The notes: a model not told the origin generated them from the letters alone. Positions 6,540 to 38,689 are shown, numbered from the stretch's first letter. The stretch: 64,000 bases of DNA from a virus (IMGVR_UViG_3300037249_000709:32001-96000); one strand, 5' to 3'. A program made the numbers and translations.

Positions 6540-6621
6540 TGGTGAGGCTGGTGGGACTTGAACCCACAACGCTTACGCAACGGGTTTTGAGACCGCCCTA
6601 TCTGCCAATTCCAGCACAACC
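6540..6621 (-). tRNA. tRNA-Leu(CAA), 3' part; interrupted at acceptor positions 3-4 by an IS607-type element
   Basis: GGTTGTGCTGGAATTGGCAGA...CTCAAAA...GTTCAAGTCCCACCAGCCTCACCA; the original 5' GAGG is at 8099-8102. Confidence 0.85.
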
Positions 6622-6790
6622 GTTACTGAAAACTTATAAAAAGTTATAAAGCAAAAACTTTTATGTTCCATTCCTTATTCAACGTGTCCATTTTTGATAT
6701 GACAAGCCATTATCTACTCATGTTTGGTATAACACTCCGAAGGCGTAAATTCCCGACTAACGTATCGGTACACATTAACAGCACTTGTTT
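6622..6790 (-). ncRNA. predicted TnpB omegaRNA scaffold (guide = adjacent tRNA-Leu sequence)
   Basis: non-coding right end downstream of tnpB, where TnpB omegaRNAs are encoded. Confidence 0.6.
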
Positions 6791-6793
6791 TAG

Positions 6794-7954
6794 CTATGCT
6801 GTCAATCCATAATTCATTAAGTTGACACTTGCCTGAAAATCTCTATCAATCGTTAGTCCGCATTCTGAACAATGATAAATTCTGTCAGATAGTTTCAAAT
6901 CGTTTTTGATATTTCCACAACAGGAACACATTTTACTTGATGGATAGTATCTATCTGCTATCACAAGCTCAATGTTGTGCCAATGACACTTGTATTCTAT
7001 CTGTCTGTAAAATTCATAAAAACATTGTTCCTGAACCACTCTTGACAAGTATTTATTTTTCATCATACCGGTTACATTCAAATCTTCTAAAACAATAAAC
7101 TTTGGCTTTCGGTTTATGATTTCGGAAGTGACAGAATGTAAATAGTTATGACGAATATTTGTTAGTCTGTGATTTGCTTTTAAAAGATTTCTTTCACTTT
7201 TTACAATGTTGCGTGTTTTACAGAAACAACCTTCTTCCTTGTTTTTTAAGTATTTTTTAGATACTCTGCGTTGCAACCTACGCTGTTTCTTCTTTATTTT
7301 TCTAATCTTTTCAGTTTTGTTAATATTCGGATAGACATTACCATCAGAACAAATTGCTAAATCTTTGATGCCAATATCAATTCCTATTCCTTGATTTGTT
7401 GGCTTTTCTTGTGATTCTTCACAATCAATTCCAACGGAAATCCACCAATTTAAGCCATCAAAAGTGATTCGTGGATTGGAATATTTTACATTAACGGGAA
7501 TCCTATTAGACTCTGCCAATTTTACATAATTGAATTTCTGCTTGTTCTTCTTTCGGCTTGTTGTCAGCTTTTCTAACTTTACATGAGTAGAAGTAAAACT
7601 GATTTTGGCAGTATCAGCATAAAAAGATGGTCTGGATTTTCTTTTGCTCTTGAATTTCGGAAATCCTGCAATACCTCTAAAAAAGTTTTGATATGCTGCG
7701 CAAGCATCTTTGATGGCTTGTTTTGTAATGTTATTGCTATAATCATTTAGCCATGTATATTTTGACTGTTTTTTCAGTTCTGTGAAAATTCTGCGAAGTT
7801 CGTAATGGGAAATAAACGAATTTTCGGCTTCGTGATTTGCTTTTTCATAGCCTAATGCCCAATTATAGGCAAATCTTGCTGCCCCCACACATTCAAACAA
7901 CTTTGTTTTCTGTTTGTTGTTTGGAAGGAGCATTACTTTGATGGTCTTAATCAT
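6794..7954 (-). CDS. tnpB: RNA-guided endonuclease TnpB
   Basis: RuvC GIDIG / VLEDL / DRD, CSCC-CSEC zinc finger, N-terminal ARFAYNWAL. Confidence 0.95.
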   Translation of the reverse strand: MIKTIKVMLLPNNKQKTKLFECVGAARFAYNWALGYEKANHEAENSFISHYELRRIFTELKKQSKYTWLNDYSNNITKQAIKDACAAYQNFFRGIAGFPKFKSKRKSRPSFYADTAKISFTSTHVKLEKLTTSRKKNKQKFNYVKLAESNRIPVNVKYSNPRITFDGLNWWISVGIDCEESQEKPTNQGIGIDIGIKDLAICSDGNVYPNINKTEKIRKIKKKQRRLQRRVSKKYLKNKEEGCFCKTRNIVKSERNLLKANHRLTNIRHNYLHSVTSEIINRKPKFIVLEDLNVTGMMKNKYLSRVVQEQCFYEFYRQIEYKCHWHNIELVIADRYYPSSKMCSCCGNIKNDLKLSDRIYHCSECGLTIDRDFQASVNLMNYGLTA

Positions 7955-8106
7955 TTTCTGTAAGTTCCTTTATCATTTTTTTACTTTATTCGCACGCTAT
8001 AATAGCAATAACCATTTACACTTTTATGATGTGGTCTTAACTTGCTGGATTTATCCCATTATTACAATATTTTATAGGAATGTTCTAACTATTAAAACCC
8101 TCATAG

Positions 8107-8178
8107 TAACCGGTACGGGACTCGAACCCGCGTCTCCGCCTTGAAAGGGCGATGTCTTAGCCTCTTGACCAACCGGTC
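8107..8178 (-). tRNA. tRNA-Glu(TTC)
   Basis: cloverleaf, loop CTTTCAA, GTTCGAGTC. Confidence 0.92.
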
Positions 8179-8183
8179 ATAAG

Positions 8184-8257
8184 TGGGAAGTATGAGAATT
8201 GAACTCATTCCGACAGTGCCACAAACTGCCGTGCTAAACCATTACACTAACAACCCC
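8184..8257 (-). tRNA. tRNA-His(GTG) with G-1, A73 and two U.U acceptor mismatches
   Basis: loop TTGTGGC; acceptor GGGTTGT/ACTTCCC. Confidence 0.8.
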
Positions 8258-8264
8258 GTATGAG

Positions 8265-8337
8265 CCTGAGTGGTGAGACTCGAACTCACGGCATCTTGCT
8301 CCCAAAGCAAGCATTCTACCAACTGAATTACACCCAG
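8265..8337 (-). tRNA. tRNA-Pro(TGG)
   Basis: cloverleaf, loop TTTGGGA. Confidence 0.9.
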
Positions 8338-8426
8338 ATGTTGCCTTGCGACCAACAAGACATATTTTTTTCATTCGCGGACTCACATCACAAGTCAATT
8401 CGATTGCCGCAAAGGTCGATGTTCAG

Positions 8427-8497
8427 AGTGGATAAAGGGAATCGAACCCTTGTCTTTTGGTTGGAAACCAAGTATTAACCCTCTTAACTATACCCAC
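8427..8497 (-). tRNA. tRNA-Gly(TCC)
   Basis: loop TTTCCAA, GTTCGATTC, U73; short D arm. Confidence 0.8.
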
Positions 8498-8761
8498 ATA
8501 TACAATTTGCGGAGTCAACCTACCCTATCCGCAATCAGAATACCGTACAATTTTGATAATGACTACCAAAACTGCCATATCCCTAACCAAAATTGCACCG
8601 AAATCCACACGGTACGACGAATCACAACCTCTGCAAAGGCTATAATCCTTTTGCCAGACCAACCTTGCAGGATTACTCTGACTTGGATTCGCATTTTAAC
8701 ACTTATGAACGTGTTGGGCTGCTGGCACACCCATCAAGTTTAACGACATTGACAAGTCAAG

Positions 8762-8839
8762 TTTCGAGGATAGGAATCGAACCTATGTTTGCCAATATCG
8801 TGCAAAGAACAGCTGTATAACACTAAGCACTACCTCGAA
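8762..8839 (-). tRNA. tRNA-like gene with non-canonical D and anticodon arms
   Basis: perfect acceptor TTCGAGG/CCTCGAA and T arm ATAGG-TTCGATT-CCTAT; anticodon arm does not fold canonically. Confidence 0.55.
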
Positions 8840-8857
8840 ATATTTATTGAATTTAAG

Positions 8858-8941
8858 TGCCGGCGAAGGGACTTGAACCCTCACGAGTATTTCATCGACG
8901 GATTTTAAGTCCGTTGTGTCTGCCAATTCCACCACACCGAC
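8858..8941 (-). tRNA. tRNA-Leu(TAA)
   Basis: loop CTTAAAA, long variable arm. Confidence 0.93.
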
Positions 8942-9076
8942 ATAAAGAGAACTCAGCTTTACCTCGCCCTTAACGACCATTCTCTTGTTACGGCTAATAC
9001 CGTACTGCCGACTGCCATACTCGCAGCTTTACTACTTCTAATCTTCCCTATTCAAGAGTAGCATTGAATAGCATAT

Positions 9077-9166
9077 TGGCGACAGAGGTAGGATTTGAAC
9101 CCACGGAGGGTTTCCCCCCAACGGTTTTCAAGACCGCTGCTTTAAGCCAAACTCAGCCACTCTGCC
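9077..9166 (-). tRNA. tRNA-Ser(TGA)
   Basis: loop CTTGAAA, long variable arm, G73-CCA. Confidence 0.93.
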
Positions 9167-9172
9167 ACATAG

Positions 9173-9252
9173 TGCGGATAACAGGATTTGAACCTGCACG
9201 CTTTCGCACCAGAACCTAAATCTGGCGTGTCTGCCTATTCCACCATATCCGC
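9173..9252 (-). tRNA. tRNA-Leu(TAG)
   Basis: loop TTTAGGT, long variable arm. Confidence 0.93.
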
Positions 9253-9380
9253 ATATTCCGCAAGACCCTCAAACAACTTGCGGCAATTTGGCTAACCAAC
9301 ATAGAAAGGAGATACTACAAACAAAACACATCAACACAACAAAAACACAAAAGTTAGCCGGGTTTTAACTTATACTCAAA

Positions 9381-10145
9381 TTACAACTGTGAGAAGAATA
9401 AATCCATAAGATTCCATTTTCTTCTACCTACCCAAACATCAGAAGAAAACATTGGTGTGTACCAAATTTCTTGACTTGATGTTGGTGTCGGAAACAATGC
9501 CGATTTTCCGGTCAGCGGATTTGTCAGCGTATCGGCAATCACTACATAGCCTGGACAGCCAAGCAATGAAAGCTGTATATAACACATAAGTCCTGCTACC
9601 CTATCAATATCCTGCGCCACAAACAAGACGTGGTTTTGATAATTGATTTCTCTATCCTTTAACGCATTCGCCATAGCAATTAGCATTGCTCCTGCGCCGC
9701 AAGCAGGGTCATTAACCGAAATCCAGCCTTTTTCTTTTACTTCTTCTTCTGCAAAATCAGCATTGATTGCTGCCATTGTTCTACATACACAGTACGGGGT
9801 GAAGAATTGACCTTTCCAATGGCTACCAAGATTTAGCCCCATAAACAATTCTCCGAGAAAATCCTGCTCTGGATTTTCTTCTAATGCTTCAACAATATAA
9901 GCAAATAGCTTAGAGCTTTTATCTACTCCGCCAAGTCTTTCAATGCAATCTGCATACTCTTTTTCTCGCTTGTCGTGTGTTTCGCCCTCTCTATCAATAG
10001 AGTTTGCAATAGCACAAGCCGTTGCCGCGATAAAATCCGCCCACACACTCCAAGAGCTTCTTGATACGCAAAGTTCTCCAAATGTCTTGATGAAAGATTT
10101 TGCGTAATCGTTTCTTATGATTGTAGTTTTTACTGTTTTAGCCAT
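9381..10145 (-). CDS. N-6 DNA methylase-like protein (no NPPY/F motif visible)
   Basis: GQFFTP and DPACGAGAML SAM-binding motifs. Confidence 0.75.
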   Translation of the reverse strand: MAKTVKTTIIRNDYAKSFIKTFGELCVSRSSWSVWADFIAATACAIANSIDREGETHDKREKEYADCIERLGGVDKSSKLFAYIVEALEENPEQDFLGELFMGLNLGSHWKGQFFTPYCVCRTMAAINADFAEEEVKEKGWISVNDPACGAGAMLIAMANALKDREINYQNHVLFVAQDIDRVAGLMCYIQLSLLGCPGYVVIADTLTNPLTGKSALFPTPTSSQEIWYTPMFSSDVWVGRRKWNLMDLFFSQL

Positions 10146-10170
10146 ACGAACATCACCTCAAAATAATAGT

Positions 10171-10245
10171 GGGTAATTTGGGATTCTCATACTGTTATAA
10201 CTTTAAACCAAATTATGTAATTAGAAGGAAGAATCCCAATAGCCC
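10171..10245 (-). ncRNA. Rot-associated Y-RNA-like stem-loop, copy 1
   Basis: GGG-CUA-UUGGGAUUCU-UCCUUCU-loop-AGAAUCCCAA-AUUA-CCC. Confidence 0.75.
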
Positions 10246-10298
10246 GTTCTCTACTCTCCCGGCGTTCGACCGAGAGAGTGAAATGGTGAGTCGTTTTG

Positions 10299-10373
10299 TA
10301 TCGGAAATTTTAGTTTCTAATCAAATACTTAAAATGGATATTTTTTTAGAAGGAAGAAACTAATTAGCCGATA
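10299..10373 (-). ncRNA. Rot-associated Y-RNA-like stem-loop, copy 2
   Basis: UAUCGG-CUAA-UUAGUUUCU-UCCUUCU-loop-AGAAACUAA-AAUUU-CCGAUA. Confidence 0.75.
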
Positions 10374-10380
10374 ATTTATT

Positions 10381-10461
10381 GGTCGGAAAGGTGGAGTTCT
10401 AAAATCTAATTCTTCAAAATCTGTATTATTCTATAAGAAGGAAGAACTACAATAGCCGACC
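10381..10461 (-). ncRNA. Rot-associated Y-RNA-like stem-loop, copy 3
   Basis: GGUCGG-CUAU-UGUAGUUCU-UCCUUCU-loop-AGAACUCCA-CCUUU-CCGACC. Confidence 0.75.
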
Positions 10462-10477
10462 TCTTGACTACTCTTAT

Positions 10478-10524
10478 ATTATATCATATTTTCTCAAATT
10501 TGTCAAGTAGTTATTTGGGTGTAT
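10478..10524 (-). promoter_or_regulatory. class-A promoter directly upstream of ncRNA copies 3-2-1
   Basis: TTGACA-N17-TATAAT plus ACCCAAATAACTAC box. Confidence 0.85.
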
Positions 10525-10542
10525 TTAAAAAATCAAAAAAAT

Positions 10543-12774
10543 TTATAACATTTCGCCCATATAATAATCAACATCAAACGGAGTGTAGATTTTTACATCT
10601 TTCACTTTCTCAACAACTTCTATCTCTTTGGTTTTTGGATTAACAACCTCAACCTTTTCGGTAACTGGTGTTGTATCAAGTGAAAATATGACATCCGCAT
10701 CTTCTCTCTTAGCAACTATCTCGCCCCTTGCCGCCACATTGAGCTTTACCAAATCATAAAGGTTTGGCTTTCTTAAATGTGTCATAGCATAGCATACAGC
10801 CGTCACGCCTTTAAGATTGCTCTCGATGTTGTTGCCGAAATAATGCGTTCTTGTTTGTGCTATTGGCATTGCAATATCACACCACACAAAACTTCTATCA
10901 ACGCAATCAAACACAACCGGAATACACACCTTACTATCAGAGTTTAAGTCGATATTCATTTCAACTGTTGATGGTTCAAAGATTTCACCTGAGTTCATAT
11001 CTTCTCTTTCCATCCAACCGAACGTCGAATTGGGCATTTGGTTGAAATGCTGCCCTGTGTAGCTATAAACTTGGAAAGCTACATACCTACCGCGTTCTGC
11101 AATTCTGTCAATGTTGATGTCGATAAACTCTGCAACACCTTGTCCATCGGGTGAACCACCATCTGTCCTATCGCCAGAGTGTATAGCAAGTAGGTCAGAT
11201 GAACGCAGCCGAGTATATGAAACGTGTTCAACAAAGTTCCAATGCTCATCATAAATTGCAGCAGACAAATCAAGGTCTACTCTGCCAGACCAGCCGCCAC
11301 ATGGAATGTTTGTCCACCAACAATATGCCCTTACAACATTAGAATTACCCTTGGTGTGTACACGGCTTCCTCTTACAAGATGTTTGCCACTCGTGCTTGC
11401 AGAACGCTGACTAAATGGCACGAGGAAATCCTTGAAGTCGTAGTCGATAAACACCTTGCCAAGATACTCCTTGCTCTTAAATTGACTTATAAGAGCATTG
11501 TTGCAAATTTTGACAATACTATCGCAAACATTTGTGTTAATGGGCGATAAATCATTGCGGATAGAAACAACATTCGAGAGCTTGCCTTTTGGGAAAAAGA
11601 CACGGTAATTATCTTCTTTGTATCTATCTGCGAAGTGCTGCCTAACTTGGAGCAAAACAGGAGTGGAAACTTCTTTCGCTACATTAGCAAAGCAATTTAC
11701 GATATAATTTTTATCCTTGTTATTAGCTTCTCTCAATAACTTATCCAACTGCCTTGCAAAGTCGCCTGGTCTTGACTTCAACATTTCCGCCGCACCCAAC
11801 ATATCCTTATTCCTAATTGCTTGCTGAACAAGTCCGGGTACGAATAGCGGCTTCTTATCATTGCGGATTTTCTGGAAAGCCTCGACAACGCTTTTATACT
11901 TTAACTGCTTGTATTCAGATGGGTGTACAATTTCCCCTACACGAATCCATTCGTATTGGTATCTATACATATCCTCTAAGATATTACCGCAGCCAGCAAG
12001 CAAGTCCATTATCATACGGCGCTCGTATCTCCGCAAGCTCCTATAATGTGTCTTTTCAGCAAGAGAAATGTCTCCATCAGACAAACAGGTGATTAGTCGC
12101 AAAACATCTGTTGCAGTCTTATAATACCTCTGTATCTTGTCTGCTTTCTTAAATGCCGCATTATCCAAAATCAGCTTACCGAGCAAAGCAACATTTTCTT
12201 TAAGAGGAATTTCTTCCGGCAGGACTTCGTAAAAGTTGTAATGTGTACTAATAAATTCCGACACATCCGCCTTGTCCTGCTCACTCAAACTCGTCTTGCT
12301 ACCCAAAAGATTCTTGAATATCTCAACTAAATCCTCATAAGTGCCGAGCGAGAGAACTTTCAGCTTAACATCGTCTATTAGCGGAAATCTTTCTTTTACC
12401 TCATAGCTCGGAACGATTTTGCCGTAACTCCAATAATGAACCATTGCATTGAAAAATAGCTCAAATTCACTTGCTTCGATTACCTGCTGCGGAAAATTCG
12501 GATAGAAAGGTTTATATACCTTGTCAGCTCCCACGAGCTTCTTTAGCTTATTAACAAGGTCAAAATAAAACTCCCTCCTATCATCATCGTCCAAAACCGT
12601 AACTGCATCAAACAGGCTTCTATCGAATGTAAAACCATATGCTTGAATATTTTTCATTATGGTTGCTGTCTGCCTACGGTCGTCATCCGTGCAAAATGGC
12701 AATGGAGCAATCGAGCTTGAAAGCTTTACTTTATTTCTTCGTCTTAGTAACACTTCGTTAATTTCGTTGTACAT
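10543..12774 (-). CDS. Rot-like protein (TROVE/Ro-related helical repeats plus C-terminal TerD domain)
   Basis: YKPFYPNFPQQV, TATDVLRL, RPGDFARQLDKLLR; TerD motifs RVDLDLSA, HSGD, AEFIDI, YSYTG; RBS AAAGGAG before ATG 12774. Confidence 0.75.
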   Translation of the reverse strand: MYNEINEVLLRRRNKVKLSSSIAPLPFCTDDDRRQTATIMKNIQAYGFTFDRSLFDAVTVLDDDDRREFYFDLVNKLKKLVGADKVYKPFYPNFPQQVIEASEFELFFNAMVHYWSYGKIVPSYEVKERFPLIDDVKLKVLSLGTYEDLVEIFKNLLGSKTSLSEQDKADVSEFISTHYNFYEVLPEEIPLKENVALLGKLILDNAAFKKADKIQRYYKTATDVLRLITCLSDGDISLAEKTHYRSLRRYERRMIMDLLAGCGNILEDMYRYQYEWIRVGEIVHPSEYKQLKYKSVVEAFQKIRNDKKPLFVPGLVQQAIRNKDMLGAAEMLKSRPGDFARQLDKLLREANNKDKNYIVNCFANVAKEVSTPVLLQVRQHFADRYKEDNYRVFFPKGKLSNVVSIRNDLSPINTNVCDSIVKICNNALISQFKSKEYLGKVFIDYDFKDFLVPFSQRSASTSGKHLVRGSRVHTKGNSNVVRAYCWWTNIPCGGWSGRVDLDLSAAIYDEHWNFVEHVSYTRLRSSDLLAIHSGDRTDGGSPDGQGVAEFIDINIDRIAERGRYVAFQVYSYTGQHFNQMPNSTFGWMEREDMNSGEIFEPSTVEMNIDLNSDSKVCIPVVFDCVDRSFVWCDIAMPIAQTRTHYFGNNIESNLKGVTAVCYAMTHLRKPNLYDLVKLNVAARGEIVAKREDADVIFSLDTTPVTEKVEVVNPKTKEIEVVEKVKDVKIYTPFDVDYYMGEML

Positions 12775-12823
12775 ATCATATCTCTCCTTTGGTAATTTGA
12801 AAATCATTTTTTTCTTTTAGCCT

Positions 12824-12888
12824 AATCGGAAATTGCGGTTTCATAAAGTTTACCCCATCTTTAGAAGGAAGAAACCGCATAGCCGATT
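12824..12888 (-). ncRNA. Rot-associated Y-RNA-like stem-loop, copy 4
   Basis: AAUCGG-CUA-UGCGGUUUC-UUCCUUCU-loop-GAAACCGCA-AUUU-CCGAUU. Confidence 0.75.
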
Positions 12889-12899
12889 TTTGAGATTAA

Positions 12900-12979
12900 G
12901 CAAGGAAATTTTAACAACTAAATTATAAATTTCAAGTCTATATCTTCACAAATAGAAGGAAGTTGTTAGATAGCCTTGC
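12900..12979 (-). ncRNA. Rot-associated Y-RNA-like stem-loop, copy 5
   Basis: GCAAGG-CUAUC-UAACAACU-UCCUUCU-loop-AGUUGUUA-AAAUUU-CCUUGC; starts 3 nt after tRNA-Lys. Confidence 0.75.
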
Positions 12980-12982
12980 AAG

Positions 12983-13055
12983 TGCGCCAGATGGGACTCG
13001 AACCCATGCTACCACGATTAAAAGTCGTGTGCTTTACCATCTAAGCTACTGGCGC
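12983..13055 (-). tRNA. tRNA-Lys(TTT)
   Basis: cloverleaf, loop CTTTTAA. Confidence 0.93.
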
Positions 13056-13172
13056 AAATTTGCAACAACCGCCATTGATTAGTAGCGATGGGTAGTTTTA
13101 ATTCTTCCCAAGAATACAAGCAGTTTATATACCGTCAGACTGTTAGCGGTAATCTTTGTTGTTGCGTTTTAC

Positions 13173-13247
13173 TGGTACTGAGTAATGGAGTCGAACCAAT
13201 GTCGGTCGCTTATAAGGCAACTGCTCTTACCGTTGAGCTAACCCAGC
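13173..13247 (-). tRNA. tRNA-Ile(TAT)
   Basis: loop CTTATAA, A73-CCA. Confidence 0.88.
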
Positions 13248-13262
13248 GTTTATATTTAAAAG

Positions 13263-13350
13263 CGGAGGGAGCGGGACTCGAACCCACACACCGTTGCCGG
13301 CTACTCACAGTTTAGCAAACTGCTCCCTTACCAATTAGGGTTATCCCTCC
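13263..13350 (-). tRNA. tRNA-Ser(GCT)
   Basis: loop TTGCTAA, long variable arm, G73. Confidence 0.92.
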
Positions 13351-13353
13351 ATT

Positions 13354-13443
13354 TGGCTGGGCGGGTGAGAATCGAACTCACGAGCGACCTTGTGGGTCTT
13401 GCAGGGGTCAAAGTCCTGTGCCTTACCGCTTGGCGACCGCCCA
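13354..13443 (-). tRNA. tRNA-Gln(TTG) with long variable arm
   Basis: U1-A72, loop CTTTGAC, G73-CCA; variable arm GACC-CACAA-GGTC. Confidence 0.85.
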
Positions 13444-22345: not shown

Positions 22346-22357
22346 CAACTTTCGTTT

Positions 22358-22438
22358 CCTATCGGTCAAGCATTACCACCTTACATAAGCAGGTTGGTGT
22401 ACGGTCATTGAGCTTGTCTCTCGCGCACTCTAAATAGG
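22358..22438 (-). promoter_or_regulatory. SAM-I-clan riboswitch aptamer (P4-less, SAM-I/IV-variant-like)
   Basis: P1 CCUAUU/GAUAGG, UAGAG, P2 with GAGAGA...CUC-AAUGA, P3 ACCAACCU/AGGUGGU, pseudoknot CAAG/CUUG; sigmaA promoter at 22450-22478. Confidence 0.75.
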
Positions 22439-22489
22439 TTTTTTCTTTTATTATAACACACAATTTATTATTTGTCAAGTATTTTTTTA

Positions 22490-28443: not shown

Positions 28444-31400
28444 TCAACTATTTTCTATGTCATTTAAAGCATTTTTAATACAATCTAATTTTACACTAAT
28501 CGAAATCAACTGATTGATTGTATAAACTCTTGCATCGTATTTCAACCCTAATTCTAATTCTTCAAAGGCATCAAGAGCTTTATTGACAGATTTTTTCAGA
28601 TTTTCTATATCTTCAATAGTCTGCTGTCTATGTTGCTCAATCAGATTTCTCATATTCATTCCTCCTACAATTTTAATACTATTAAAGCACCTTGTCACTT
28701 TTAGATACGCAAGTGTAGATTACTAATTTTCCATATACTATCCACAACTTAAGAAAAAAATACAAATTTTGTGGCAGACGTTTTGTCGCTCCGTTCCTGT
28801 ATTCTATGCAGTACCGCTTTACTCATAAAATGCTTAAGTTGTGGACAGTGATTCCCGTCTATTGTATTTCCTTCGGCTATTATGCTATCTCAATCCACCA
28901 CAATTTAGGCTTTTCAGCCCAATCTTTAGGATTATCTGCATTAGTCGTTCCCCAATTACGGTAAAGAACAGCAACACCACGTTTGTTCTTGTATACTACT
29001 TCAAGACTTTCACAGTTGTTACCTCTTCTACAACTGCCGGTGTAATCTGCTGACCATATTTTGCCTACCGTAGCCTCTTTAAAATCCTTTGCGTAAAGAT
29101 TAATTTCTTCGCCTCTACCGCCTTGAAAATCGCAAAAGTCACTTCTAAGAGTTACAATCGGAGCTTCTACCAATACACTTGTTTTCATAATGATTCCTCC
29201 TATAATCTTAATTAAAGCACCTGATTACTTTGGATATATCAGTGTAGCTTTACAGCGTGAATATTGTATCCACACTGCCATCAGCGTTATGCTTTTGTTT
29301 ATGATTTAACTGTAATAGTTAGCGTATAACCGTTTTCTTCCGTACATAAATTATTTAATTCCATTAGCTGTTATAAGCATAGATTTGAATATATACATCA
29401 AGGTCGGGATATTCTGTGCCGAAAAATCCGTTAGCCCTACAATTAAAACAGATTTCTGATTCCGCCTTTAAGATTTCAAAATGGTCATTTGAACGGCTTG
29501 CAATCCTCGCAGCGGTCTGACAATCTTCCATGAAGCTCTCTTTGGTTATTTCTTTCATATCATTTATGATTTTCCTAACTTCGGGCATCATATCCAATGT
29601 CAAGTGTTTTCTCATCTCAGGCGTAATTTTAACTTTCATAGCTCATTCTCCTTTGCTTAATACAATTCGTCAAAAGCCTCTATGATTCTCCTTTTGCGTT
29701 CTTCGTCATTGTCCGCAGATGTTTCGTAAATGCTCCAGGTACAGTCAAAGCCGCAGCGATTAGTTACTTCTTCGATTCTGCCGTCAACAATCAGTCGCAT
29801 AAATATCTTTGTGCCGTATGTGTGTTCTGTTATTTTCCGTACCTTATCATCAAGGAAAAATCCTGTTGATTTGTGATTTATTAAATACCTTCTTACGCAA
29901 TCATAAGCCTTATCAATAGTCAGGTAGTTTTCAACATAATCAACATACTCGCCGTTTTCAAACAGCACAACACAAAAACTTCTGCCGTCCTTATTTCTCA
30001 CAACCGTGATTTCGTCGCCATCCTTTGTGGCTCTTATGAGATTATGCAGTTTATTGAAGTATTCCTCACAAGTATAATCCCCATCTATGATGTGCTTAAA
30101 TCTCATTTCTGTCATTTTATCACACCTCCAGTTCTGATAAAGCCGCTGCCAATTCTTGCAGCATACCGTCAATATCTTCTGCATCGTGTACCAATTCCCT
30201 TGCTGACGGAATGCCACTCACGCCGTTTCTTTTTGCCTCTATCCGCATTTCGATATGCTCATCAATATCAAAATCGGCAGCATATTCTCTAACTTCTTTG
30301 ATGATGTTTTCCTTGCCAACTGTAAAGCTAAAATCTTCTCCTGCTGGACTATACTGATAAAACGATACCGTGTCGCCGTCATCTTCTACAGACCAGCCAA
30401 GAGCTTCCGATGTTTTGATTATTTTATTCAACATTGTTATTTCCTCCTTGCTTAATGGAATATTCCCGCTCGTATTCTGTCTTGCTAAGAATTTGATTGA
30501 CGAACCACTCCGCAGTTCTGTTACCTCTGCCCTTGTCGGCTTCTACATTATCCCATACTATTCGTGTTAAATCTTCGCTTTCTTGTCTGTCATATCCTTT
30601 TGCTTGTATCATTTTCATCACTCGGAGAAAATTTCTATGTGTTCGATTTCGCATTTTCATTCCTTACACCTCGTTCCATTTTCCGACTTCATAAGCTGTT
30701 GAGCCGATGCTTATTGTAACAGTTCCTTCGTGTGTGATACCTTGACCTACCAAGTTTATTCTTTTGGTTATTCTGCAAAGCGGCATATTATATAATGACT
30801 TATCGTACACAAGCAGCTCGACGGATTTTCCGCTTTTGGAGATGCTGCATATCTTTATGTGGTCGATGTTCCTTTCCCATCCACCTCTATCTACTATTGC
30901 ACACCTCTCTTTAAGAGGAATAATGCTTCTGTTATATACTGTCATAATCTGTTTCATATTATCCCTCCTGTATTATATTTCCATCTCTGCAAAAGAAGTC
31001 ATCTCAAAAGTCAAATCTTCCGGCGTTCTTGCGAATTTTTCAACCCATACCGAAAAATGCTGCGAAAGATACGATTCAAGATTTTCAAGATTTTCCGGCT
31101 TTTCAGATATAGTTTTGATTGCCTTGCAAAACTGCTCTGCTAATATCTTGTTGTTCGCTTCCATATCATCATCTCCTTGTGTTGTTAGCACTCTTGATAC
31201 TTTAGACTGTCAAGATGTAGCCTTAACAGCAGCTGTTCTGGCTGCTGCCTATCGGTCGTCGTGCGTTTAATATCCATAATGGAGTATTTGTAGGTCGTTC
31301 CACATATCAGGATTAAATCCTTTCAGCAAACCTAAAAACGGTTTTAATCGTCTATAATTATCTCTCTCGATTTCGGATTCCAGCCATTCGATAACCTTGT

Positions 31401-32198
31401 CGATTTTGGCAGATTTTATTTTGTCACCGTATCTATCCCTGCTCGTTGTGTGGTTGCCATCTTCCGCATATATTTCATAATCTATTTCTTCTGTGAATAA
31501 TTTGTAAAACGAATAATCCATTCTACACATTTCCATTGTGGCAATAATTTCTGCATATACTTGCTCAGGCTGATTTTCTGGCTTCCAGCGTGTTACATCG
31601 ACTATAAAAATTTTGCATTCATAACCCATAAATCATTCCTCCATTTATAATATAGTTATTTGGATTGTTTCTTTACTCAAAAAAATAATTTCCATTTACT
31701 TACTATAATAATTATACCATACTTCTATTAGTATGTCAATACTTTTTTTAAAAAAATTCGTTTATTATCTAAAATCATAAAGTTTGCAGTTTTCTTCAAT
31801 CCAATCAATGCCAGAGAATAAGTCAGCCATATTCTCGCCTATATCTTGCCAGTTAGATGGGCAGTTAAATGTTCTTGCCATTTCAGCCATAAGTTGATAT
31901 GCAAATGCTGCCATCTCATAGTCTTTGTGTCTGTACGCCGATGTAATCATATCTTCTATAATCTTTTCCATAATGCAGCCTCCCTAACATCAATTATTAT
32001 TTAAATGGTTTACTCTTACATTCTTTTTAAATAGTCCTGCCGTTCCTTTACCGTCTTAAAGCTCAGCACTTTGTTAAGATGTGCGTTTATATCTTCCGAC
32101 TTAATAGCAGGCTTCGGCGGCATTAAACTTTCTTTAGCTCCGATGATTGCCCATACTATAAGGATTCCTACTATATATAAAATTCCCATTTTATTCAC
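28444..32198 (-). CDS. cluster of small early hypothetical ORFs (28444-28698, 28880-29188, 29364-29639, 29657-30217, 30120-30434, 30424-30660, 30664-30957, 30973-31164, 31267-31629, 31765-31971, 32016-32198)
   Basis: co-oriented, strong GGAGG RBSs. Confidence 0.6.
29215..29294 (-). ncRNA. variant type-P5 twister-like ribozyme
   Basis: P5 AAGCAU/GUGCUU; GCU-GA-UGG; P1 hairpin; UAA-AGCU-AC-A; P4 CUGAU/AUCAG with UCCAAAGU. Confidence 0.65.
31188..31264 (-). ncRNA. variant type-P5 twister-like ribozyme
   Basis: P5 GCAC/GUGC; ACC-GA-UAG; P1 hairpin; UAA-GGCU-AC-A; P4 UCUUGA/UCAAGA with UCUAAAGU. Confidence 0.65.
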
Positions 32199-32276
32199 CC
32201 TCTGTTATAATGTAATTACTTGCATTGTTTCTTACGCTTTATTTTTTAGGGCGGGAGACCGCCCTTTAGCTTGTTA

Positions 32277-32537
32277 CTACTTATTTTTCTCTAAAAAGTC
32301 ATCTATTGCTTCTTGTAAAATCGCACCATAAGAAATGCCAAGCTCATCACATTTTGACTTGTAATTTTCTGCTATTTCTTTCTTAACGCGAACAACAATC
32401 TGTGTGTATGTTCGCTTGTTATAGTCGTTGTTTGCCCTATAACTTGTGCGTTTAGCATACTCTCTTTGCCTTGCGTTTTTTCGTTCTCGTGCTTCTTCTT
32501 CTGTATATTTCCGCTTTGCCATTACATTAATCTCCAT
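32277..32537 (-). CDS. ribbon-helix-helix-like regulator
   Basis: DYNKRTYTQIVVRVKKEIAENYKSKC...ISYGAILQEAI. Confidence 0.65.
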   Translation of the reverse strand: MEINVMAKRKYTEEEARERKNARQREYAKRTSYRANNDYNKRTYTQIVVRVKKEIAENYKSKCDELGISYGAILQEAIDDFLEKNK

Positions 32538-32966
32538 TTACTCAGGTATTCGTGTAGCTCCGTCTGGTAAACTGTCTACCCAATCGGATAACAGCTTTAG
32601 TTTTTCAAATTTGATTTTTTCTGCTTCTTCCAGTGTAACATTTTTAGGCGGTTCAAATAGAATGGCACGTTTCTGTTCTAACCATTTAAAACCATCTGGC
32701 AAATTTTCCGTGTCGATTTGGTCGTACTTCCATGCAAAAGAAATATACATTGTAGTTGGTTCAGTTGCATCATTATGAGATTCGCAACAGCTCCATGTTG
32801 TATATCCCTTATCATTAAGTCGTATTATCATATCTTGCATATTTATGTCAAGCCAGATAAGGTCTTGCGGCGGATAATATTCGCATACACATTTGTTAAT
32901 CTGTCGTAGGCATTGATGACAAACATAATTTTCCAATAGCTTTTTTGACCTTCGTAAATTCCTCAT
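32538..32966 (-). CDS. hypothetical protein
   Basis: LNDKGYTTWSCCESH motif. Confidence 0.6.
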   Translation of the reverse strand: MRNLRRSKKLLENYVCHQCLRQINKCVCEYYPPQDLIWLDINMQDMIIRLNDKGYTTWSCCESHNDATEPTTMYISFAWKYDQIDTENLPDGFKWLEQKRAILFEPPKNVTLEEAEKIKFEKLKLLSDWVDSLPDGATRIPE

Positions 32967-32978
32967 AGATTTTCCCTC

Positions 32979-33557
32979 CTATCTCGAATTGTATTGATTG
33001 TATTCTGTGATGTTATCAATAGAATGCTTCGCAGCGTCATATAATGGTGTAATATCAATTCCGTTTGCTCTGTAACCATCTTCGATTACATTGAAATAAT
33101 AAACATCAGGCGGATAAATACCTTTTCTCTCATCCGTCATAACATAAACCATAGCTTTCTTAACTTCGCCGCTGCAATCCATTGTAACGGGAATTGTTAT
33201 CCTTTTATAGTATAGCGGATAACCTTCATATCTGTCAAGGTTTTCTTTATCTATTTTATTTGTTAAATTCCAAACAACGACCGGTACAAAATCCTCCTCG
33301 TTTCCAGTATGGATTATGTCAGCATGATAATTAAAAACCAACTTCCAGCCGTGCAGTTTTCCGTTGCCGACAACCTTTGTATGTGGGCATCTACTTCTCA
33401 TCTGTTCAATATTCATATTGCTTCCATAGCTAATGTATAACATACCTATTCTCCTTTCTGCCAGATTTTTTGATTTTTGAAAAATGCTATTTTTTAATAT
33501 TACGATTTTTTGATTTTCTTTCCTGTTCTTCAATTTCTTCGCCAAATAGCCATACAA
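32979..33557 (-). CDS. gamma-glutamylcyclotransferase (AIG2-like)
   Basis: YISYGSNM, LDRYEGYP..Y; real start probably MLYISYGSN. Confidence 0.9.
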   Translation of the reverse strand: MYGYLAKKLKNRKENQKIVILKNSIFQKSKNLAERRIGMLYISYGSNMNIEQMRSRCPHTKVVGNGKLHGWKLVFNYHADIIHTGNEEDFVPVVVWNLTNKIDKENLDRYEGYPLYYKRITIPVTMDCSGEVKKAMVYVMTDERKGIYPPDVYYFNVIEDGYRANGIDITPLYDAAKHSIDNITEYNQYNSR

Positions 33558-34256
33558 TATTTTTCAATTCTGAAAAATCCTTTTCGCCGCGATAAACAGC
33601 CTCGCATAACTTTCCGTTTTTCTGTCTTATTTCCTCTGCTTTTTCCTCTGTAACCTCTGTTCCATTGTGCAAATACCATTTCTTCATTTTATTATTCCTC
33701 CCCCTTATGATTCGACTGTTATGTGTAATGTATAATCATTTTCCTTGTTGCATAGATTATTTAGCTCCATTAGTTTATCTCTAAGCCGCTCGTTATCTTC
33801 TTTTGTCAAAACGCCGTCGGCTCTATAATGGATTAACGCTATATCCAATAACTGAATATCATATGTGTGAAGTTTAAATTCCATCTTCATTTTCATTTCC
33901 TCCTTTTATTTAAGACTTCTTGCAAAGTCAAGCATCCATTTTTCGCTAACATAGCCAGCAAAAATGTTTTCTATGTCTGCCATAATAGATTTCAAATTGT
34001 TGTAAATAAACAAATCCTCAAACGCTCCGTTATTCAAATTGCCTTTAATCACTTCCGAAAGATTTACGGTAACGCCTTTGTTCCAATCTTCCGCTACAAT
34101 GGTTAGCTTTTTTGCGATTTCGCGCATAGCTTCATCCCATTCGTCAGCAGGATTTACGCAATCGGGATAAAAGTAAATTTCCACATCATAGTCCTTGTCC
34201 CACACTGTCAGCTCGTCAATATCTTGATGTTTCCGAATAAATTCAAAAAGTGTCAT
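33487..34256 (-). CDS. three small ORFs (33487-33687, 33705-33896, 33906-34256)
   Basis: GGAGG RBSs. Confidence 0.6.
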
Positions 34257-34278
34257 AACTAATTCCTCCTTATTTGTT

Positions 34279-34356
34279 AGCGTACCAGGTACTTTAGACT
34301 TCCTGTGTGTAGCCTTAACAGACGGATTTTCCGTCTGCCTATCGGTCGTTTACGCT
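34279..34356 (-). ncRNA. variant type-P5 twister-like ribozyme
   Basis: P5 AGCGUA/UACGCU; ACC-GA-UAG; P1 CAGACGGA/UCCGUCUG; UAA-GGCU-AC-A; P4 CAGG/CCUG with UCUAAAGU. Confidence 0.65.
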
Positions 34357-34736
34357 CTTTCTACTTGACTTGCCGAAAACCAACAAGCGTCTTTCAAGAA
34401 CATTCTCGACTTGTCGATTTCTTCTCCGTTCTCGTCTATTCCTTTTCGTGTTGTGTATTTCCATATTGCGAATTTAGCAACCGCCTTTTCTCCTTTTCTT
34501 ACGGAATAGCCTAAACTTTTCCACATTGCAAAGGTGTGAATTTCTTCCGGCTCTGCGATTTCCTTTTTGCCGCCGTGTCCGTCATCAACGACGAATATTC
34601 TGCCGGTCGTTCCTATCAAACCTTCCTCCATCAACCTTACTTGCTCGTAAAGGATAATCATTTTGTTAGTCATTGAATATTCCTCCTTATCCGACTTTTC
34701 TGTAAACCGCTTCGCCGTTACTAAATCTTCCGACAC
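34350..34736 (-). CDS. ArdC N-terminal-like ssDNA-binding domain protein
   Basis: HTFAMWKSLGYSVRKGEKA ... FSASQVE. Confidence 0.75.
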   Translation of the reverse strand: MSEDLVTAKRFTEKSDKEEYSMTNKMIILYEQVRLMEEGLIGTTGRIFVVDDGHGGKKEIAEPEEIHTFAMWKSLGYSVRKGEKAVAKFAIWKYTTRKGIDENGEEIDKSRMFLKDACWFSASQVERA

Positions 34737-35175: not shown

Positions 35176-35268
35176 AAGATTTTCCTCCTTGATTTGTTTT
35201 CTTAATTATATCATACTTTTATAAGTATGTCAATACCTTTTCTAAAAATTCTTGAAAAATTTTTCCTT

Positions 35269-35896: not shown

Positions 35897-38282
35897 TCAA
35901 CAAAACATCAACAGTTTTTTAATATTAAATCTTTTTGATTTTTCCAGAACATTTTCCGTTCTGTCTCTTGCGATTTGCCAGTTCTCGCCGTTCTTTACTC
36001 GTGTGTAAATTTCCTCGCAGTATTCGCCGCTTCCGTCATAGTGTTTGAAATACGATACTCTGCGGTATGTTTCCGTTGTTTCGCTCTCCGAAATTTTCTT
36101 GATAAATGACGGATAGTCATAATCATATGACGGATTGTAAATGTAGTTTGCCAAATCGAATTTATAGCCGTTCGGCGCTTGAATTTTCCGCAGCTTGATG
36201 ATGTATTCCGGTTTCATATTCCTTGACATAATAACGCCTCCTCAAAAATCCTTATCAAAGTAAACTGTTACACGATTATCCGCGATGTCATAGTCATTCC
36301 CGATAAACTCGTAGACGTTGCCGTCGGGATATTGGATTATTACCCGCGCTCCCGTTTCTGCCGGTATGATAACGGAATTTTCCGTTACCGTTGTTTCGGG
36401 CTTGTTGGTAAATCCAACTATTGCCGCCGATGCTGCCAGTATTGCCATAGCTATTGCGATTTTCTTTTTCATTGTAAAATCCTCCTTAATTTTCCGTAAA
36501 CAAGTCGATTATTTTCTGAATGCGATTATATACGGTATTGTAGTTGTTGATGTTCGGTAACAAGTAAATCGCCGTAAATTCCGCCGTGTCCTTGACTATT
36601 CGTACATTCTCCGGCTTCCATTCGTCGGTACAAGCATAAAAAGCAATGCTTGATAACGCGCCGCCGATAATTCCCGTTAAAGCTCTGCGTTCTTCTTCTG
36701 TTGCCTTGCGTTCTTCTAAATCGTGAGTGATAACTGTTGATGAAAAATCTCGTACCGCTTCGGCTCTGATGTTTTGGTCAAAGAAATTATCCGATAAACC
36801 TAATGTGTTAATAAATTTTTTCATTCTGCATTCTCCTTCTGCATTTCTTCCCATAGTGTTTGAATTGTTTTGTCTATCTTGTCAAGCGTGATTTCGCCGT
36901 GTTTGTACATATCCATTGCAAGGTTAAAAGCATCTATTATGTGCCATTCCATTGTATAGCCTCCTTAATAGTTGATGTGCATTTTTGCGTGTTCTAATGC
37001 TATTGCGACTATCTCAGCCGGAAAATTCCCTTCGGGATAGTATCTCTTGATTTGTCCTGGGCGTGCTATTAACTTTGTAACAAGTCTGTTTGTCCTTGCA
37101 TTATAGATGATTATTATTCCGTTCGTTGTGAGAATGTGACGTTCTGCGCCGTTCTTGTGTCCATTATCAACGATAAATTCTGCATATGTAGTGCCTTCGC
37201 CGATTTCCTGGATGTGGCGTTCTCTAAATCTGCGTTCTTTTGCATAGTGTAGACTTTTTCTCATCTTTGCCGCCTCCGTTCTTTTAAACCACCATTAAAA
37301 GCGCTTTTGTCCTCGCTGATATTGCGTATGTAACGCCGGTGTCCTTGTCTCTGATGATGCAGCCGTTCACGCCGAAAATTCCGGTACTGTACATTATTCT
37401 CGTTACTCTGCGTTCACTAAGAAAACGCTTCATTGTGCCGGTGTCGTAGTTTGTAATGTTGACTGCTTCGCCGTCTTTAATCCATCGTCTGATGCGTGTG
37501 TTCGTCACTTTTTCAAGCATAACATATCACCTTTTAAATTTATTACACTAATTTTAGTGTTGGGATGGAGTTGCTTCGGGCGCAGCTCCTCAAAAGCCCT
37601 TTTTGTTACATTTCTGTAACTCCCTTGTATACTATTCGCTTCATATCGTAATAGCACAAATCGGGCGCGTATTCCTTCAAAAACCATCCGATTTGTTTAA
37701 TCGTCGTCATCGAATATGTGCCGGTACACTCGATAAAGCGGCGATTATTGATAATCTGAATAGTGATAACGCGCGTTCTATAGCTGATGAAGTCAACGCT
37801 ATTGTCGTCGTTGATGCAAACATAGCATTGTGCATAGGGATGATTCTTCAAAGTCTTTTTCATAATGGAATACCTCCGATATTTAGTATTTGCAGTTACG
37901 GGCTTGTGACCGTCAACGGCTGCATTACCGGCAGCGGATTCGCCGCCGTCACTCTGCATTAAATGAATTGAATGTTTGCGTAGTTGACACGCTCGTACAT
38001 TATCGACTCTTGATTCAGCTTGACCTTCAGCGACTTGATAATCTCGCAGATTTTTCCGTCAATAACATCATCTGATGCAATTTCGATTCTAAATGATTTT
38101 TCCTTTACGATTTCGCCGTTCTCGTGTCTGTAAACTCCGTAGCACTCGAACATTGTAAAAGCGTAGATATCAAAATCAATCAGCAGCGTGTCCGCGATAA
38201 TCTCGTGTGCGTTCTCTGTGTTGATGAGCTGCGTCTTTGTGATTTTGTCGTTTAATCCGACTGTTAATGTGTACTTTGTCAT
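35897..38282 (-). CDS. small early ORFs (35897-36229, 36242-36472 secreted, 36486-36854, 36965-37264, 37284-37520, 37606-37863, 37959-38282)
   Basis: co-oriented with GGAGG RBSs. Confidence 0.6.
37898..37958 (-). ncRNA. twister ribozyme (canonical core, P1 closed by hairpin)
   Basis: UGCA-GA-GUGA-[CGGCGGCG/CGCUGCCG]-G-UAA-UGCA-GC...ACGG-UCACAAGC-CCGU; T1 GUGA/UCAC, T2 GC/GC. Confidence 0.88.
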
Positions 38283-38689
38283 TGTGATAACCTCCTATAA
38301 TGTAATTACTTGGATTGTTTCTTGGGCGGCTCGTTGTCGCCGCTCGTGTTTCTGTTGTGTCTATATTATATCATACTTTTATAAGTATGTCAATGAAATT
38401 TCAAAAACTTTTTTCAGTTTGTAGCATTGCACAAAATCATAACATTACATTTGGCTGATACGTACAATGTCAAGCAAATTTTCCTTTTCCTTATTTATAT
38501 ATAGCTTGTAGCAGCTCCGCCAACGCTCCGGATATTCCTTTTTTTGTTTTCTCCGTTTTGTTTTTTAATATTGGATTTTTTGTGATGTTCTGAAAATTTC
38601 CTATTGTTTTTTAATATTCCTATTTTTTGTAAATCCATCACGAAATTTCCTGGTTTTTTAAAATTGCTTTTTTCTGTGATGCCTTGCCA

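Follow-up and report, generated by a model that had tools for sequence, protein, structure and literature searches.

The virus genome IMGVR_UViG_3300037249_000709 carries three RNA elements, copies A, B and C, which to judge from their sequence probably belong to a conserved self-cleaving subfamily of type-P5 twister ribozymes found in large gut and rumen phages. The elements lie in a stretch of 64,000 nucleotides, referred to here as the window, which comprises bases 32001-96000 of the 166,766-bp virus record and belongs to a genome that is complete by CheckV. All coordinates are window coordinates unless a contig is named. The subtype is conserved and was previously unmodelled. Twister is defined by the helices P1, P2 and P4 together with the pseudoknots T1 and T2, and by a conserved A 3' of the cut (PMC5408937). 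An earlier note on this stretch had proposed a twister subtype, and this assignment is supported by the kept core, by covarying pseudoknots, by intermediate forms and by arrays that are shared with known ribozymes.

Three variant twisters in one phage genome

All three copies are encoded on the minus strand, the sense strand of every gene in this region. Copy A (29215..29294) has the T1 pair CCA/UGG and the T2 pair GU/AC and is predicted to be cut between 29252 (U) and 29251 (A). Copy A is absent from the seed of our covariance model R1, which detects it with 38 bits (E 4e-7); the model R2 scores it with 72.4 bits, and its fold has a z-score of -4.2. Copy B (31188..31264) contains T1 CUA/UAG, T2 GU/AC and a P2 of GG/CC plus a G.U pair, and its cut is predicted at 31225/31224 (R2 53.8 bits, fold z -1.5). 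Copy C (34279..34356) likewise has T1 CUA/UAG, with the predicted cut at 34317/34316 (R2 60.6 bits, fold z -3.1), and at its 5' end it overlaps the stop codon (34350) of the preceding gene.

The elements follow in each copy in the order P5, P2', GA, T1', P1 hairpin, UAA, P2, AC-A, P4 5', NNR-U-NNN-AA-GU-A, P4 3' and P5'. Minimum free energy folds of A, B and C form the P5, P2, P1 and P4 helices as in the canonical twister of the same phage. The core pattern TACTTTRGA-N(3-12)-GTAG is found three times in the window, where 0.01 occurrences are expected by chance, and exactly three times in the whole 166,766-bp genome. The P5 pairs differ by copy (AAGCAU/GUGCUU, GCAC/GUGC and AGCGUA/UACGCU), and the sequences of P1 and P4 differ too. 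P2 is weak in B and C, being formed by CC/GG plus a G.U pair, and consists in A of 3 bp, a bulged base and 1 bp. A reading of the elements on the plus strand was discarded: the folds are weaker and inconsistent, and G.U pairs would turn into C.A.

The earlier note had placed the RNAs at these coordinates and on this gene-sense strand, and it had described the element order, the compensatory changes in P5, T1 (CCA/UGG versus CUA/UAG), P1 and P4, and as deviations the T2 pair GU/AC, an enlarged L4 and a weak P2. All of this was recovered here, the weak P2 in B and C. The two cuts it had predicted, 29252/29251 and 31225/31224, coincide with the U^A of the invariant UAA. The note had named a search with the twister-P5 model as a check. 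Rfam was scanned over the window twice, at the gathering threshold and then permissively at E ≤ 10, and even the permissive scan returned zero matches at the sites of A, B and C.

Homologs and covariation

The model R1 was seeded with B, C and two viral homologs from a pattern scan in which T1 was free, with the pseudoknots left unpaired in the model. Later pattern scans left free either T1/T1' or T2', the second T2 base and the closing base of L4, and were scored with the models. The search covered viral contigs, whole carrier records, bacterial genomes and metagenome-assembled genomes (MAGs), and then metagenome assemblies. Viral contigs and MAGs yielded 62 copies (52 distinct, 42 sources), and the metagenome scan contributed 40 further distinct sequences from human-gut and rumen assemblies. 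Pooled, these are 92 distinct homologs on ~80 viral, MAG and metagenome contigs from human gut and rumen. Infernal alignments were used throughout, as MAFFT alignments misplaced P1 structurally.

Carriers with complete records are phages of 95-167 kb, several of them with terminal repeats. The MAG matches are labelled Lachnospiraceae, Ruminococcus and Clostridia and lie mostly on contigs of 124-160 kb; these contigs are probably binned phages, and the hosts of the carrier gut and rumen phages are probably Clostridia. A megablast search with 12 kb against GenBank phages gave no match, so that the phage studied here has no close cultured relative. On one metagenome contig of 78,740 nt the sequence stops at the first A after the predicted U^A of a variant copy (L356:3028-3063, minus strand); we did not count this as evidence.

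When the pseudoknots are included, 96.6% of the cells of the 52-sequence alignment pair, compared with 66.4 ± 0.9% after shuffling and no more than 38% when the partners are slid, and double-sided changes occur at 20 of the 23 pairs. The paired cells amount to 98% in P5, 87% in P2, 99% in P1 and 98% in P4, with double-sided changes in all four helices. A mutual-information scan places predicted pairs at all of its top 15 positions. The same scan brought out a fourth P2 pair across a bulged base (alignment A7, columns 7 and 65), which is A-U in 40 sequences, U-A in 4 and C-G in 3. In most variants P2 thus consists of 3 bp, a bulge and 1 bp, while the canonical P2 is a continuous helix of 4 bp. 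In 32 sequences P1 has a G.U pair at its base, which assigns the RNA to the gene-sense strand.

The models left T1/T1' unpaired, and covariation in T1 and T2 was not imposed by the search but comes from freely scanned positions or from copies found by model alone. T1 is paired in all 92 distinct copies, as CCA/UGG, CUA/UAG or UCA/UGA (31, 14 and 7 sequences of the 52-sequence alignment). T2 is paired in 91 of 92, with GU/AC in 86 and GC/GC in 5, next to one A.C mismatch in L324; the corresponding numbers for the 52-sequence alignment are 51 paired, with 47 GU/AC, 4 GC/GC and 1 A.C. The five GC/GC copies were found with T2 free in the pattern or by model alone. The dinucleotide GA with the catalytic G and the scissile UAA are each present in 92 of 92 copies. 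The U-NNN-AA-G of L4 is found in 52 of 52 aligned sequences and is invariant in all 92, which for pattern-derived copies is partly imposed by the patterns. More generally, the search patterns fixed parts of the core, and invariance of those letters is to this extent partly imposed.

Relation to type-P5 twister

The variants share with the type-P5 twister (RF02684, clan CL00120; Roth et al. 2014 as reviewed in PMC5408937) the same circular permutation and element order. They have P1, P2, P4 and an outer P5, a T1 of 3 bp and a T2 of 2 bp, the U^AA, the GA and the U-NNN-AA-G of L4, and both types are found in the same phage and in the same intergenic context. The catalytic G of twister is G45 in O. 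sativa (PMC5408937); counted on the published O. sativa sequence, this residue falls on the G in GA, between P2-3' and T1'.

Unlike type-P5 twister, the variants have a T2 of GU/AC instead of GC/GC, an L4 closed by A.A instead of G-C, three extra bases in L4 and a bulged P2. The extra bases are a conserved A-N-A located 5' of the U in L4. Canonical twisters have a conserved GC in L2, and the G-C pair closing L4, which is described as "essentially invariant", continues P4 in every crystal structure (PMC5408937). In place of the conserved GC of L2 and of L4, 86 of the 92 copies have AC and GU with the pairing kept. The most unusual of the deviations is that L4 has lost its closing G-C pair, and not T2, which the earlier note had listed among them: published twister descriptors already permit 'NC' at the T2 site (PMC11662667).

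Changes of this kind are compatible with activity in known twisters. According to mutagenesis, Watson-Crick pairs in T2 can be swapped and C31U is tolerated (PMC5113685). Natural twisters withstand bulges and imperfections in P4, provided that the pseudoknots pair and the catalytic residues are present (PMC11662667). The CHiTA survey (PMC11662667) and the Osa-1-4 mutants (PMC5113685) thus report activity despite T2 swaps, C31U and P4 bulges or mismatches. There, the imperfections are scattered and individual, whereas here one fixed set is found in at least 90 distinct sequences, with the CHiTA sequence lists outside the comparison. The fixation of the same changes across so many distinct sequences argues for a selected subtype. 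The T-variant twisters of Schistosoma mansoni (PMC8501958) were likewise missed by standard models, and cleavage and translation of the downstream open reading frame (ORF) were shown for them. They differ from canonical twister in P1 and in the number of A residues at the cut, keep the canonical L4 and T2, and are eukaryotic and tied to retrotransposons.

Two copies on contig L329 connect the variants to canonical twister. They combine the 5' half of the variants (AGCU-GA-UGG-P1-UAA-AGCU) with a canonical L4 (G-U-CCA-AA-GC-C), and score 56.4 and 52.7 bits with the Rfam Twister-P5 model and 43.3 and 32.7 bits with R2. Further intermediates (L328, L246:649 and L406:9563) have T2 GC/GC and retain the A.A closure. 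Because of these bridging copies and intermediates, we interpret the subtype as a derived branch of Twister-P5 that lies beyond the reach of the Rfam model.

Arrays with known ribozymes

The window also contains a canonical Twister-P5 at 37898..37958 on the minus strand (RF02684, 58.5 bits versus a gathering score of 37.6), with T1 CAC/GUG, T2 GC/GC, an L4 closed by G-C and the cut at 37927/37926. On related contigs, the variants occur in alternation with Twister-P5 and Pistol ribozymes confirmed by Rfam, all on the same strand and in corresponding intergenic positions. These arrays contain 3-6 self-cleaving ribozymes of different classes each, and neighbours are separated by one small ORF. 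The array L341:4500-7186 (minus strand) holds a twister and five variants in 2.7 kb. L342:4238-7247 (plus strand) has the order variant, twister, variant, variant, pistol; L337:292-2019 (minus strand) shows variant, twister, variant, and L121:9711-10968 (minus strand) pistol, variant, variant. We regard this company as the strongest indirect evidence for the proposed cleavage of the variants, because pistol and twister have nothing but self-cleavage in common.

Gene and promoter context

A Shine-Dalgarno (SD) sequence and a start codon follow 14-42 nt (median 26) after the 3' end of the ribozyme in 55 of 62 copies. The ATG is located 27 nt downstream of A and 23 nt downstream of both B and C, in each case with an SD sequence, in agreement with the earlier note, which had seen each copy just upstream of a ribosome binding site (RBS). 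The genes that follow, all on the minus strand and without a Pfam family, encode 102 amino acids downstream of A (28883..29188, SD AGGAGG), 63 downstream of B (30976..31164) and 116 downstream of C (33909..34256).

From ~27 to 39.5 kb of the window, every gene lies on the minus strand, and three perfect extended sigma-70 promoters are found (TTGACA-17-TGnTATAAT, 12/12 with the TG present), all on this strand. The promoter at 38365..38393 heads a unit of a gene (38282-37962), the canonical twister and a gene starting at 37863. The promoter at 35205..35233 precedes two genes, copy C and a gene starting at 34256. The third, at 31711..31739, stands before a gene (31629-31270) and copy B, followed by six genes, copy A, a gene (29188-28883), the decayed copy D described below and a gene starting at 28653. 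Each unit has at least one ribozyme between co-directional genes after the first or second gene, and the unit from 31739 has both B and A. The region is thus built of several promoter-driven units, and not of the single early polycistron assumed in the earlier note. Its suggestion that the transcript is cut into units is consistent with this anatomy.

A decayed copy and an inverted repeat

The earlier note had also pointed to a decayed fourth copy overlapped by an inverted repeat, and both are real. Copy D (28686..28752, minus strand) is a paralog of A, to which it is 71% identical along 107 nt, a stretch that takes in the RBS region; the alignment score is 75.5 compared with 31 ± 4.8 for shuffles. 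R1 matches D in its 3' half only (11.4 bits, E 1.3), and D does not fold (z -0.2). D no longer has the GA-UGG that forms GA-T1', its P4 stem is gone, P1 does not pair and L4 contains an insertion. On account of these losses and the insertion we take D to be a dead remnant, for which activity is not expected.

The inverted repeat has arms of 17 nt at 28737-28753 and 28833-28849, which are complementary at 16 of 17 positions and separated by a spacer of 79 nt; the proximal arm overlaps the former P1 of D. A repeated mobile element was rejected as an explanation of the inverted repeat, since it occurs a single time in the genome. A promoter-like sequence, GTGACA-17-TAAAAT (10/12), is found at 28670-28698 on the minus strand, within the 3' half of D and just upstream of the next RBS.

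Alternative explanations

Several observations weigh against the assignment of the variants to a self-cleaving twister subfamily. Among the 92 distinct copies, 85 have an L4 closed by A.A, and G-C is found only in the two canonical L329 copies (A.A 45, A.G 3, G.A 2 and G-C 2 in the 52-sequence alignment; A.A in 40 of 40 metagenome copies). In natural twisters, imperfections at the loop-proximal pair of P4 lower the mean fraction cleaved from 0.76 to 0.58 (PMC11662667). A mutual-information scan for a partner of the extra A-N-A in L4 found none, and the geometry of the active site may differ. With the Rfam twister models, whose gathering threshold is 37.6 bits, no variant-type copy scored even at E ≤ 10. 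Moreover, we infer the role in operon punctuation from position only.

The lost closure, the partnerless A-N-A and the failure of the Rfam models would all be expected if the RNA derived from twister but had lost cleavage and served as a structured element of the 5' untranslated region, for example as a translation enhancer or insulator, a protein-binding site or a nuclease barrier. The tight spacing to the start codon, with its median of 26 nt, would suit such a translational role too. We nevertheless consider this explanation unlikely. The residues that serve only chemistry are invariant in 92 of 92 copies: the G in GA and, in UAA, the A that follows the scissile bond. Within the arrays, the variants also fill positions equivalent to those of canonical twister and pistol, with which they would share only self-cleavage, and intermediates connect them to twisters of Rfam grade. 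Self-cleavage of the variants is in our view likely. Activity is favored because the chemistry-only residues are invariant, both pseudoknots are paired, and T2 swaps and C31U as well as bulges and P4 mismatches are tolerated in twister.

Another twister-like class or an unrelated class resembling twister by chance is highly improbable. Twister-sister (RF02681) has a vague similarity to twister in sequence and secondary structure (PMC5408937) and occurs in the same phage-associated neighbourhoods, and the escape of the variants from the twister models could be read in this direction. However, twister-sister lacks pseudoknots and cleaves on the opposite strand (PMC5408937), while in the variants T1 and T2 covary. 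No Rfam family matches the variants at E ≤ 10, twister-sister and the other clan members included, and the 5' half of the variants equals that of Rfam-grade Twister-P5 copies position for position. Twister-sister, pistol, hatchet, hammerhead and the RAGATH motifs were also rejected as identities, as permissive Rfam scans of the variant-type copies came back empty.

Paralogous intergenic repeats lacking an RNA function, be it as duplicated gene-start cassettes, DNA-level sites or chance similarity, can hardly account for the data: A and D do have a common downstream RBS region, so that cassette duplication occurs, but the stems vary in sequence yet stay paired in the 92 distinct copies from ~80 contigs, the structure is tied to one strand by its G.U pairs, the pattern is 300-fold over chance in the window, and D exemplifies the decay that follows once constraint is lost.

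Proposed mechanism and role

For the putative self-cleaving type-P5 subfamily we propose the following mechanism. The G of GA would act as general base or transition-state stabiliser, as in canonical twister, and the A of U^AA as general acid. The RNA would cut itself co-transcriptionally between U and A, leaving the upstream cistron with a 2',3'-cyclic phosphate and the downstream mRNA with a 5'-OH. The first ~35 nt of the downstream mRNA would then be the folded remnant of P2-3', P4, L4 and P5-3', located ~26 nt before the start codon. In this way, adjacent early genes that share one strong promoter could be uncoupled in their fate, that is in stability and translation.

The likely role of the ribozymes, as suggested by their position, is to cut the operon transcript just ahead of selected cistrons. 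Processing of polycistronic mRNA by bacterial ribozymes has been suggested but never established (PMC6765202). A broader proposal can be put forward only tentatively, and taken as a whole it is doubtful. Up to six ribozymes, comprising variant and canonical twister and pistol, would stand before nearly every early cistron and split the transcript from a strong promoter into separate 5'-OH mRNAs. The A.A/GU-AC subtype together with the diversity of T1 (CCA, CUA, UCA, CAC) would avoid mispairing between tandem copies. In addition, the kinetics of the subtype may differ, or it may respond to a factor via the A-N-A.

Other features of the window

The genes that flank the ribozymes are small, and most are without a family. 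The gene at 34353-34736 (minus strand), upstream of copy C, contains an ArdC-N-like anti-restriction domain (27.8 bits). The gene at 37962-38282 (minus strand), upstream of the canonical twister, has a weak, sub-threshold SAM-lyase-like match, where SAM stands for S-adenosylmethionine. Both are consistent with an early or anti-defence region.

Elsewhere in the window, at least 12 tRNA genes are clustered at 6543-13443 on the minus strand. A RAGATH-18 RNA is found at 6671-6743 (minus strand, 73 bits). RAGATH-18 is described as the motif from which the guide RNA of IS607-type TnpB nucleases derives (PMC11061315), and a TnpB-like gene may lie upstream of the copy found here. A SAM riboswitch aptamer lies inside the phage genome at 22356-22440 (minus strand); its score of 48.8 bits is barely over the gathering score.

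Significance

Because the subtype escapes the standard models, censuses of twister in phage and gut data come out too low. The covariance model and the alignment of ~90 sequences can be used for annotation. A rule considered nearly invariant, the G-C closure of L4, is broken by a natural subtype, which probes what the twister fold requires. The role of self-cleaving ribozymes in bacteria and phages is still open (compare PMC6765202), and the phages described here are a good natural system in this respect. Their repeated anatomy, with ribozymes ~26 nt before the start codon, downstream of perfect early promoters and in mixed arrays, makes operon punctuation directly testable.

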